The notes under the pieces were generated by a model. The model was not told the origin of the DNA, did no database searches, and worked only from the letters and a program-made list of their open reading frames with translations. From sequence record PX068455.1: a DNA stretch of 64,000 bases. One strand, 5' to 3'. Positions 60,927-61,825 of this stretch are shown here, piece after piece. Source of the DNA: a phage. A program made the position numbers and the translations under genes. Numbering within the stretch: the stretch's first letter is position 1; every line of letters begins with the position of its first letter.

Positions 60927-61003
60927 TGGTCTCCACGGAGTGATTCGAACACTCGACCTCCTGATCCCAAATCAGGCGCTCTACCAAGCTGAGCTACGCG
61001 GAG
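60927..61003 (-). tRNA. tRNA-Pro (anticodon UGG)
   Basis: 77-nt cloverleaf read by hand: acceptor CTCCGCG/CGTGGAG, anticodon loop UUUGGGA, T-loop GTTCGAATC, CCA encoded. Confidence 0.8.
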
Positions 61004-61014
61004 TATTTATTATT

Positions 61015-61089
61015 TGGTGGCCCTGGGTGGAATTGAACCACCGTCTGGCGATTATGAGTCGCTTGCTTGAACCTTCCAGCTACAGGGCC
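61015..61089 (-). tRNA. tRNA-Met or Ile2 (anticodon CAU)
   Basis: 75 nt: acceptor GGCCCTG/CAGGGCC, anticodon loop CUCAUAA, T-arm GGTGG-TTCAATT-CCACC, CCA encoded. Confidence 0.75.
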
Positions 61090-61090
61090 A

Positions 61091-61166
61091 TGGTGCTGAT
61101 GGCAGGACTTGAACCTGCAACCTATTGATTACAAATCAATTGCACTGACAATTGTGCTACATCAGC
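61091..61166 (-). tRNA. tRNA-Thr (anticodon UGU)
   Basis: 76 nt: acceptor GCTGATG/CATCAGC, D-arm GCAC/GTGC, anticodon loop UUUGUAA, T-arm GCAGG-TTCAAGT-CCTGC. Confidence 0.8.
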
Positions 61167-61170
61167 AAAA

Positions 61171-61269
61171 GGTGCTAGGTGATGGAATCGAACCACCTAT
61201 GTATTCAACGACTACCTCGTCTATTTTCAGGATTAAAAATCCTCGCCCTTGCCAAAGGGCTTACCTAGC
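61171..61269 (-). ncRNA. atypical tRNA-like gene (about 99 nt) with non-canonical anticodon region
   Basis: Perfect acceptor GCTAGGT/ACCTAGC, canonical D-arm GCCC/GGGC and T-arm GGTGG-TTCGATT-CCATC, but anticodon arm only 15 nt and a 31-nt extra region. Confidence 0.45.
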
Positions 61270-61367
61270 GCAATATGTTGACCATGTGGCTAGTCGGCGA
61301 TGACGACTGTAACATTTGATAATCCGGTTCTGCTTCCGGCTTTCGCTTAATTACAAGGTCAACAATG

Positions 61368-61458
61368 TGGCGGAGAGTAATGGAATCGAACCATCATCGA
61401 GTTATCCTCAACGGGACGGTTTTCAAGACCGCTTGAGCACCATTGCTCCCTACCCTCC
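61368..61458 (-). tRNA. tRNA-Ser (anticodon UGA), type II
   Basis: About 91 nt: acceptor GGAGGGT/ACTCTCC, anticodon arm GCGGT-CUUGAAA-ACCGT, long variable arm, T-loop TTCGATT, CCA encoded. Confidence 0.7.
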
Positions 61459-61572
61459 TTTATAAATTACACTGATAATGACACTGATTTTCGAGCAGTT
61501 AGTGACTAGTATAAACGACGATAAATATCAATGTCATTATCTGTATGATTTATGCATTTAAAAATATAAATT

Positions 61573-61659
61573 TGGTGGGGAGTGGTGGAGTCGAACCACC
61601 CGAGTCGCAATGACAATAGATTTACAGTCTACACCGCTACCTCTACGGGATAACTCCCC
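61573..61659 (-). tRNA. tRNA-Tyr (anticodon GUA), type II
   Basis: 87 nt: acceptor GGGGAGT/ACTCCCC, anticodon arm ending ACUGUAAAUCU as in bacterial tRNA-Tyr, T-loop TTCGACT, CCA encoded. Confidence 0.75.
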
Positions 61660-61663
61660 AATT

Positions 61664-61738
61664 TGGCACCCCGTACTGGACTCGAACCAGTGTCAACGGC
61701 TTAGAAGGCCGCTGCTTTATCCACTAAGCTAACAGGGC
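61664..61738 (-). tRNA. tRNA-Arg (anticodon UCU)
   Basis: 75 nt: D-arm GCTT/AAGC, anticodon arm GCGGC-CUUCUAA-GCCGT, T-arm ACTGG-TTCGAGT-CCAGT, CCA encoded; G1-U72 wobble. Confidence 0.7.
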
Positions 61739-61796: not shown

Positions 61797-61825
61797 ATAT
61801 TACACTGTTAGGCAAAGTTTGTCAA
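61797..61825 (-). promoter_or_regulatory. sigma70-like promoter (TTGACA-17-TAATAT) for the tRNA cluster
   Basis: Consensus -35 at 61820-61825, -10 at 61797-61802 (minus sense), about 55 nt upstream of tRNA-Arg. Confidence 0.55.

Follow-up and report, generated by a model that had tools for sequence, protein, structure and literature searches.

The DNA analysed here, a stretch of 64,000 nucleotides (nt) from a Vequintavirus (an rV5-like myovirus of Escherichia coli; sequence record PX068455.1, hereafter the window), carries on its minus strand an operon of transfer RNA (tRNA) genes that ARAGORN reads as Arg(tct), Tyr(gta), Ser(tga), X, Thr(tgt), Met/Ile2(cat) and Pro(tgg) (60927..61738), where X denotes the 99-nt tRNA-like gene (61171..61269, minus strand) that is the subject of this study. 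The original prediction had noticed an atypical gene between tRNA-Thr and tRNA-Ser, and it does lie there, on the minus strand, with tRNA-Thr 4 nt downstream of it and tRNA-Ser 98 nt upstream. The tRNA region of the window is 100% identical to that of phage ECP2303 and 99.8% identical to that of the BASEL phage Bas59 (EduardKellenberger), and X itself is 100% identical across ~90 GenBank records of rV5-like phages. We find that X is a functional, selected gene for a non-canonical tRNA-shaped RNA and the rV5-lineage member of a discrete RNA family.

Read 5' to 3', X is GCUAGGU AA GCCC UUUGGCAA GGGC G AGGAUUUUUAAUCCU GAAAAUAG ACGAGGUAGUCGU UGAAUACAUA GGUGG UUCGAUU CCAUC ACCUAGC A CC, a body of 96 nt followed by the discriminator A and CC, which is recognised as a whole by ARAGORN, by the Rfam tRNA model and by the family covariance model (R1) described below. 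The parts named in the original prediction are all present. The perfect acceptor stem of 7 base pairs (bp) joins GCUAGGU (61263..61269) to ACCUAGC (61174..61180); A8-A9 and the D arm GCCC-UUUGGCAA-GGGC, with a 4-bp stem and an 8-nt loop containing GG, occupy 61245..61262; and the T arm GGUGG-UUCGAUU-CCAUC (61181..61197), with its 5-bp stem and the loop predicted as TTCGATT, is supported by both the Rfam tRNA model and covariation. The anticodon-like hairpin AGGAUUUUUAAUCCU (61229..61243) has the 15 nt reported for it, and the extra region of 31 nt (8 + 13 + 10), with its own hairpin of 4-5 bp, consists of a 5' junction strand GAAAAUAG (61221..61228), the hairpin ACGA-GGUAG-UCGU (61208..61220) and a 3' junction strand UGAAUACAUA (61198..61207), whose last five bases, ACAUA, may act as an ordinary 44-48 variable loop. 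The gene ends with A73 and CC (61171..61173), most other genera having U73 followed by CCA; because the base after CC is U, CCA is not fully encoded in X.

ARAGORN and the Rfam covariance models were run on X, checks of a kind that had been proposed for it, and no tool yields a canonical class II tRNA. ARAGORN calls tRNA-???(atcc), with a four-base anticodon AUCC on a different fold (stem AUUUU/AAAAU). The Rfam tRNA model (RF00005) gives X 35.5 bits (E=5.9e-5), above its gathering score of 29, aligning a 7-nt loop UUUUUAA (anticodon UUU) on a 4-bp stem, with position 27 deleted and an insertion of 26 nt in the variable region. RNAfold predicts a cloverleaf with the extra hairpin (minimum free energy -34.2 kcal/mol, z = -3.66; 0/200 shuffles fold as well). 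The hairpin AGGAUUUUUAAUCCU admits three readings, 4 bp closing UUUUUAA, 5 bp closing UUUUA and 6 bp closing a UUU triloop, the last being the minimum found by RNAfold, so that both foldings first suggested are recovered, one by Rfam and the other by RNAfold. The two anticodons suggested with them fared differently, UUU being the one read in the Rfam tRNA fold; the pairing partners needed for UUA, and for the AUCC fold of ARAGORN, are absent from the Seunavirus, Henunavirus and Mydovirus homologues, and both of these readings were rejected.

The same difficulty is visible in public records. The identical X sequence is labelled in GenBank as tRNA-Lys, tRNA-OTHER (Asp/Gly), tRNA-TERM or tRNA-???(atcc), or carries no label; annotations based on tRNAscan give tRNA-Lys/AAA, some records give tRNA-TERM or tRNA-sup(tca), and the rV5 genome paper lists six tRNAs, X not among them (PMC3606486). 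The patchy annotation of the family follows from the failure of the Rfam tRNA model to see some of its members, since the homologue in Salmonella phage KE22 gives no match at E<=0.01; the homologue in phage Av-05 matches only tRNA-Sec (RF01852), at 29.4 bits. A tRNA-Sec identity was rejected, the family scoring below the gathering score of 47 bits and having 7/5 rather than 8/5 acceptor and T stems and A or U rather than G73 as discriminator, where tRNA-Sec also has the anticodon UCA. ARAGORN found no transfer-messenger RNA in the window, and the only match to the YrlA/Y RNA-like model (RF02553, gathering score 69), at 25 bits, lies over the neighbouring tRNAs and not over X. Annotators have seen the gene already, but our literature searches found no description of this RNA, a tRNA-like RNA in a phage tRNA cluster.

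Homologues were collected by BLAST and exact-pattern scans and are found in five genera of Vequintavirinae, in one unrelated N4-like Salmonella phage and in metagenome contigs, with one copy per genome, placed in the tRNA cluster. Besides the rV5-like phages they include Av-05 (Avunavirus); Salmonella phages KE22, R7 and SalP219, Cronobacter phages GAP31 and Csp-D17 and Enterobacter phage FENT2 (Seunavirus); Proteus phage Mydo and Klebsiella phages DP and NDO71 (Mydovirus); and Erwinia phages Hena1 and pEa_SNUABM_56 (Henunavirus). The N4-like podovirus is Salmonella phage UTK0002 (Schitoviridae), into which an X-type RNA has moved horizontally as a single unit. N4 and the Vequintavirinae share a glycan receptor (PMC11990801), which makes co-infection, and hence such a transfer, plausible. 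A host origin or prophage copies of X were rejected after scans of bacterial DNA: X has no BLAST match in 5,426 E. coli genomes, and the exact motif of the 3' linker and T arm, AATACATAGGNGGTTNGATTCC, has no match in 185,579 bacterial species genomes. As a separate observation, 18 GenBank records (MG0656xx) named 'Campylobacter phage' match E. coli rV5-like phages at 98-100% identity in this region and are probably mislabelled or contaminants.

Covariation shows that X is selected as a folded RNA. When 26 distinct homologues are scored on the cloverleaf, 520/520 cells are paired and 11/20 pairs show two-sided changes, among them five of the seven acceptor pairs (7/7 of which form in 26/26 homologues) and 3/4 of the D-stem pairs; 0/500 shuffles reach the observed score, and sliding the 3' partners leaves only 35-47% paired. 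An earlier count over 17 sequences, with the full 5-bp anticodon-like stem included, gave 99.5% pairing. The tertiary pair of the elbow changes in the same concerted way, 16 sequences having G19:C56, 10 having U19:A56 and none a mixed or unpaired combination, which implies that the D loop is open and that an L-shaped elbow is under selection; a 6-bp D stem closed by a tetraloop, as in tRNA-Sec, was rejected, since the covariation requires an open loop and the Sec model scores below its gathering score. Comparison of Mydovirus and Seunavirus phages gives 96-99% identity over the 109-nt body of the RNA and only 57-75% over the 300 nt downstream. The family model R1, a cloverleaf with A8/U14, a short anticodon arm and GAAAA...AAUACAUA strands around the extra hairpin, gives its members 103-112 bits (X 104 bits, E=2.8e-22) and the best canonical tRNAs (class II Tyr, Ser and Leu, and Cys) <=28 bits. 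In phage V18 (L005 1450-1542) the Ser gene, the 5' half of X and the 3' part of tRNA-Tyr are lost in a natural deletion, which brings the remaining 5' part of tRNA-Tyr up against the last 42 nt of X; X is therefore dispensable in the laboratory and is an accessory gene.

The upper half of the molecule is that of an ordinary tRNA, the 7-bp acceptor stem, 5-bp T stem, T-loop, D arm with G18-G19 and elbow pair being kept, and paired, in 26/26 homologues. The lower half is not. The anticodon-like arm has 15 nt in X and 15-16 nt across the family, against a canonical 17; its stem covaries (AGGAU/AUCCU, AGGUC/GACCU, GGGC/GCCC), while the loop it closes has 5-7 nt, according to whether the innermost pair forms, and differs in content from lineage to lineage. 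The canonical combination of a 5-bp stem and a 7-nt loop with U33 and a purine at 37 is not found, position 33 being U, A or C and only A37 being invariant. A8 and U14 are invariant in 26/26, where canonical tRNAs have U8/A14, and U15 opposes an A at the position equivalent to 48, so that positions 8-14 and 15-48 are apparently swapped in X-type RNAs.

Between positions 43 and 44 there is an insertion of 26 nt in X and 25-35 nt across the family, bounded by near-invariant A-rich strands, GAAAA(A)UN on the 5' side and NRAAU on the 3' side; the latter strand contains AAUACAUA, invariant in 26/26 of the aligned sequences. The hairpin between the two strands is exchangeable. In rV5 and Av-05 it is a 13-nt stem-loop, the shortest form, and the Av-05 version, ACGG-GCUAG-CCGU, differs by a compensatory A-U to G-C change; in other genera the arms have 20-24 nt and fall into two classes, type 1 being GC-rich hairpins of 22-24 nt and type 2 having the conserved form GCC-AGAACUAACAGUAC-GGC. 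The copies in Klebsiella phage DP (L020) and Proteus phage Mydo (L015, 808-917) have flanks 98-99% identical and arms of different types, which points to modular exchange of the arm. UGGA, complementary to U34-C35-C36-A37 of the loop, occurs in 7/7 type-1 arms, and the sole copy with G34 (phage 4MG) carries UGGC in its place; type-2 arms lack UGGA, and positions 33/34 vary freely there. This suggests that UGGA/UGGC in the type-1 arm may serve as an internal codon-like partner of the loop, though the compensatory event is a single one and could be chance.

The loop and the discriminator switch together between lineages. In the rV5 lineage of the window the arm is AGGA-UUUUUAA-UCCU and is accompanied by A73 and CC; Av-05 has the loop UUUAUAA with U73 or C73; the Hena type, which includes the N4-like copy, has YAUCAAA with U73 and CCA; and the Seunavirus/Mydovirus type (14 distinct sequences) has C-N-N-C-C-A with U73, G1:C72, C2:G71 and an encoded CCA. 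The identity set of bacterial LysRS is A73, U34, U35 and U36, and that of GlyRS is U73, G1-C72, C2-G71, G3-C70, C35 and C36 (PMC9976931). X carries the full LysRS set, which holds in the rV5 lineage only, in a stem (AGGA/UCCU) that differs from that of host tRNA-Lys (GUUGA/UCAAC), and no relationship in sequence to tRNA-Lys of host or phage emerged, the 5,426 E. coli genomes giving no BLAST match. Within the Seunavirus/Mydovirus type, whose loops are CAUCCA, CAGCCA, CCACCA, CCGCCA, CCUCCA and CUUCCA, the bases C35, C36 and A37 are invariant, and among unpaired positions only the equivalents of 33/34 exceed two states; position 34 is U, G or A in otherwise identical RNAs, and the copies in FENT2, NDO71, K54_rec2 and the metagenome sequence L034 differ at positions 33/34 only. 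This pattern fits an RNA selected to be recognised by a synthetase or some other reader of tRNA-Gly; it does not fit one selected to decode, for which U33 and a defined wobble base are needed. A canonical tRNA-Gly(UCC) stands beside the Gly-like copy in the KE22 cluster, and is present also in the clusters of Av-05 and Hena1, whose copies have other loops.

Taken together, these observations make X more likely a tRNA mimic engaged in conflict with the host than an ordinary decoder. Our tentative reading, which we hold with less than even confidence, is that X is a matured and probably chargeable mimic of tRNA-Lys that counters host effectors targeting tRNA. With its canonical acceptor, T arm, D arm and elbow, X is expected from established tRNA biology to be cut by RNase P, trimmed, given CCA and folded into an L shape, and it would be produced in quantity together with the phage tRNAs. 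Host readers of tRNA-Lys would recognise it, and LysRS would probably charge it, although it would not be built for routine decoding. Instead it might occupy or titrate effectors that destroy tRNA-Lys, such as PrrC and PARIS in E. coli, without being inactivated in the normal way, its short, tightly closed loop and altered stem making it a poor nuclease substrate. tRNA-Lys is abundant in E. coli, which makes codon supplementation a weak motive for carrying such a gene. PARIS acts lethally through cleavage of E. coli tRNA-Lys at positions 40/41, from which a variant tRNA-Lys lets T5 escape (PMC11464382); loop changes at nuclease sites in phage tRNAs have also been described (PMC10264068). T4 possesses a heal-and-seal repair kit against the tRNA-Lys anticodon nuclease PrrC (PMC10264068), to which correspond, by annotation only, genes of Bas59 (MZ501061, 125348-127356) for an RNA ligase, a polynucleotide kinase and a phosphoesterase, located 3-5 kb upstream of the operon, or 0.7-4 kb past the right end of the window. 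The move of an X-type RNA into a Schitoviridae phage, together with its absence from the bacterial genomes scanned, suggests that X works alone with host factors.

We regard as doubtful a broader version, in which the members of the family are self-contained, horizontally mobile anti-defence RNAs whose loop and discriminator are re-tuned to the host range so as to imitate the tRNA under local attack. The imitated tRNA would then be Lys in E. coli (against PrrC and PARIS) and Gly in Salmonella, Klebsiella and Cronobacter, where the effectors would be, for example, GNAT toxins reading U73 and G71 on Gly-tRNA-Gly, and in some lineages the loop may be masked by an internal codon mimic (UGGA, or UGGC where the loop has G34) carried on the exchangeable arm.

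Several points weigh against a mimic. No specific host effector was linked to X, and the identity argument is built on only 2-3 independent switches between lineages. No E. coli identity set accommodates the Av-05 lineage (UAU, U73 or C73), none is fully matched by the Hena-type loop (YAUCAAA, U73), and the Seunavirus/Mydovirus type carries the GlyRS set minus G3:C70. Free variation at 33/34 could be neutral drift and not an arms race, an enzyme decoy needs high abundance or tight binding, and neither the invariance of the junction strands nor the conservation of the 14-nt loop in the type-2 arm is explained by the model.

The main rival, which we consider unlikely, holds that X does decode, if in an unusual way: as a structurally re-engineered tRNA-Lys(UUU) it would be a substrate of LysRS, read AAA/AAG, resist nucleases and stand in for host tRNA-Lys once anticodon nucleases have destroyed it. 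Its loop can indeed be read as U32-U33-U34-U35-U36-A37-A38 with A73, as the tRNAscan-based annotations have it; no other tRNA-Lys is present in rV5-like genomes, most other tRNAs of the operon read A-ending codons, and genes annotated as RNA ligase and polynucleotide kinase lie nearby. Odd or enlarged loops can decode, as in yeast mitochondrial tRNA-Thr. The T5 tRNA-Lys that defeats PARIS (PMC11464382) is a precedent. Against this, a 7-nt loop leaves an anticodon stem of 4 bp, the thermodynamic optimum being 6 bp with a 3-nt loop, and the 26-nt insertion and A8 also count against a decoder. Among the homologues, on the same scaffold, there are copies without U33, with 6-nt loops and with a free wobble base, which argues that the scaffold is not selected for decoding, and the closest lineage, Av-05, has changed both U35 and N73. 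With loops of 5-7 nt and a canonical tRNA-Gly adjacent to the Gly-like copy as well, the family as a whole appears to lean away from ordinary decoding.

It is rather improbable that X is a tRNA-shaped structural or processing element (a signal for RNase P or 3' processing, a transcript stabiliser, or a binding site for a partner of the A-rich junction) in which the loop has no identity role. Such an element would account for the pattern of conservation, which is highest in the upper half of the tRNA and in the junction strands and not in the loop, and the T4 tRNA cluster also carries stable RNAs, rnaC and rnaD, whose function is unassigned. However, processing sites are already provided by the neighbouring tRNAs, the gap to tRNA-Thr being 4 nt, and a pure processing signal would not predict invariant C35, C36 and A37 or a discriminator that switches with the loop; the transfer of a single unit into the N4-like phage argues further against a partner protein specific to the Vequintavirinae.

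We give little credence to the idea of a dedicated aminoacyl carrier for a non-ribosomal reaction, comparable to the staphylococcal tRNA-Gly species that feed Fem transferases. In such carriers identity elements are kept and decoding features lost, as here. Non-translational uses of aminoacyl-tRNA are noted in the review of Giege and Eriani (PMC9976931). The apparent identity nevertheless switches by lineage (Gly-like, Lys-like and others), a poor fit to one conserved chemistry, no aminoacyl-tRNA-dependent transferase is annotated in Bas59, and the RNA alone moved into an unrelated phage. A suppressor of nonsense or frameshift mutations (UUA ochre, UCA opal in the Hena type, or four-base AUCC) is more improbable again: the GenBank labels tRNA-TERM and tRNA-sup(tca) and the four-base anticodon of ARAGORN speak for it, but the UUA and AUCC folds are not kept in homologues, the Hena type has A33, and opal suppression there was rejected on a crude test in which Hena1 showed no avoidance of TGA (7/36 long open reading frames ending in TGA, against 15/81 in Bas59). 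Finally, a decaying tRNA, as the original prediction had considered, or a chance fold is effectively refuted, for although X is dispensable in V18 and skipped by many annotators, purifying selection is strong, compensatory changes run across genera through every helix and the tertiary pair, the body is far better conserved than its downstream flanks, and the family has been kept in five genera and transferred to another phage family.

Other kinds of element were also tried and rejected. Protein coding is limited to spurious open reading frames of <=64 amino acids, antisense across the tRNA genes. A small RNA acting by base pairing found no support, the complement of the invariant linker occurring nowhere else in the window; nor does the complement of the conserved type-2 arm loop match 50 kb of Hena1 any better than expected by chance. 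The idea that the insertion is an intron, which the phage ligase and kinase would remove, was dismissed by reasoning, because deletion of the 26 nt leaves a 4-bp stem and the site is not 37/38.

Among known RNAs, X shares with the bacterial class II tRNAs (RF00005) the 7/5 acceptor and T stems, the T-loop UUCGAUU, G18-G19, the elbow pair, an operon position and an extra arm between the anticodon and T arms. It differs from them in that its family has an anticodon arm of 15-16 nt, no conserved U33, A8/U14 in place of U8/A14, and an extra region of 31-41 nt with conserved single-stranded linkers of 8-10 nt on each side. T4 rnaC and rnaD are likewise small stable RNAs within a phage tRNA cluster that are not tRNAs, and rnaC ends with a T-arm-like CCGGG-UUCGAAU-CCCGG, but at 119 and 139 nt they are longer than X and have no full cloverleaf; R1 finds no match in either and there is no sequence similarity, so that the likeness is one of context only. 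The nuclease-resistant T5 tRNA-Lys that acts against PARIS is, like X, encoded by a coliphage, with a Lys-type loop on a stem different from the host stem that AriB cuts. Both it and the T5 tRNA-Tyr that acts against retron Ec78 are canonical 76-nt decoders with few substitutions, whereas X has a truncated arm, a large insertion and relatives whose loops are not those of decoders. The non-proteinogenic tRNA-Gly species of Staphylococcus, which are donors for peptidoglycan bridges, offer a parallel in that the Seunavirus/Mydovirus copies keep much of the GlyRS set and lose ribosomal features; the X family differs in having no constant identity, another body architecture and no assigned partner transferase. 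The allo-tRNAs (PMC5389517) share with the family non-canonical cloverleaves, long variable arms, varied anticodons and, in some cases, a phage location; they are 8/4 or 9/3, in contrast to the 7/5 of the X family, whose oddities lie in the core and the anticodon arm.

The explanation of phage tRNA genes by codon usage is now giving way to one in which they are counter-measures against host enzymes that destroy or modify tRNA. If X is indeed a mimic, this idea would come to cover, beyond replacement tRNAs with slight mutations, a tRNA mimic built for the purpose, and the family, with its Lys-like, Gly-like, UCA-type and UAU-type loops on a common scaffold, would amount to a natural experiment in the switching of identity. 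Whatever its function, X is a case of interest for tRNA structure, with a covarying elbow pair, a shortened anticodon arm and a modular insertion at 43/44. There is a practical side too: in well over 100 genomes of phages that are therapeutic candidates, the gene bears one of four incompatible annotations or none.

Some further features of the operon and of related phages deserve mention. A sigma-70-like site, TTGACA-17-TAATAT (61797..61825, minus strand), identified by consensus match only, lies ~60 nt upstream of tRNA-Arg and is likely to be the promoter of the tRNA operon; a second promoter-like site, ATGACA-18-TATACT (61537-61508), falls within the 114-nt spacer between tRNA-Tyr and tRNA-Ser (61459-61572, minus strand). 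The 98-nt spacer between tRNA-Ser and X (61270-61367, minus strand) folds into a closed, cloverleaf-like structure of three arms with an 8-bp closing stem, UGUUGACC/GGUCAACA (minimum free energy -24.2 kcal/mol, z = -2.2; no Rfam match), and may be a degenerate tRNA remnant or another small RNA. The D-arm hairpin of X together with GAGGAUUUUU (61245-61260, minus strand) scores as similar to an intrinsic terminator, in the rV5 lineage only, and this is probably incidental. The tRNA with a CAU anticodon (61015-61089, minus strand) is tRNA-Met according to ARAGORN and the rV5 paper and tRNA-Ile (AUA, lysidine type) according to the BASEL annotation. Elsewhere in its genome Bas59 has a gene annotated as a ribosome hibernation factor.

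Directly downstream of the tRNA-like gene in KE22 (L003 1606-1796) and Av-05 (L004 ~1612-1790) there is an element of ~180 nt that starts GUG(C/U)AUUAGCU, ends ACCAU(G/A)CA and has a long closing stem (-63 kcal/mol, z = -3.8); it has no Rfam match and is absent from the phage of the window. Av-05 has in addition a second odd tRNA-like sequence (L004 1798-1883), with a good acceptor stem and T arm, an arm ACAAGU-CUUCUAA-ACUUGU (anticodon UCU, Arg) and a long stretch ahead of the T arm but no D arm of normal form; ARAGORN misses it, and the tRNA-Sec model scores it at 29.6 bits, below the gathering score of that model. In KE22, ARAGORN calls a tRNA-Ile(gat) at L003 1419-1494 that the Rfam tRNA model does not report at E<=0.01, and this may be another atypical tRNA of the Seunavirus cluster.

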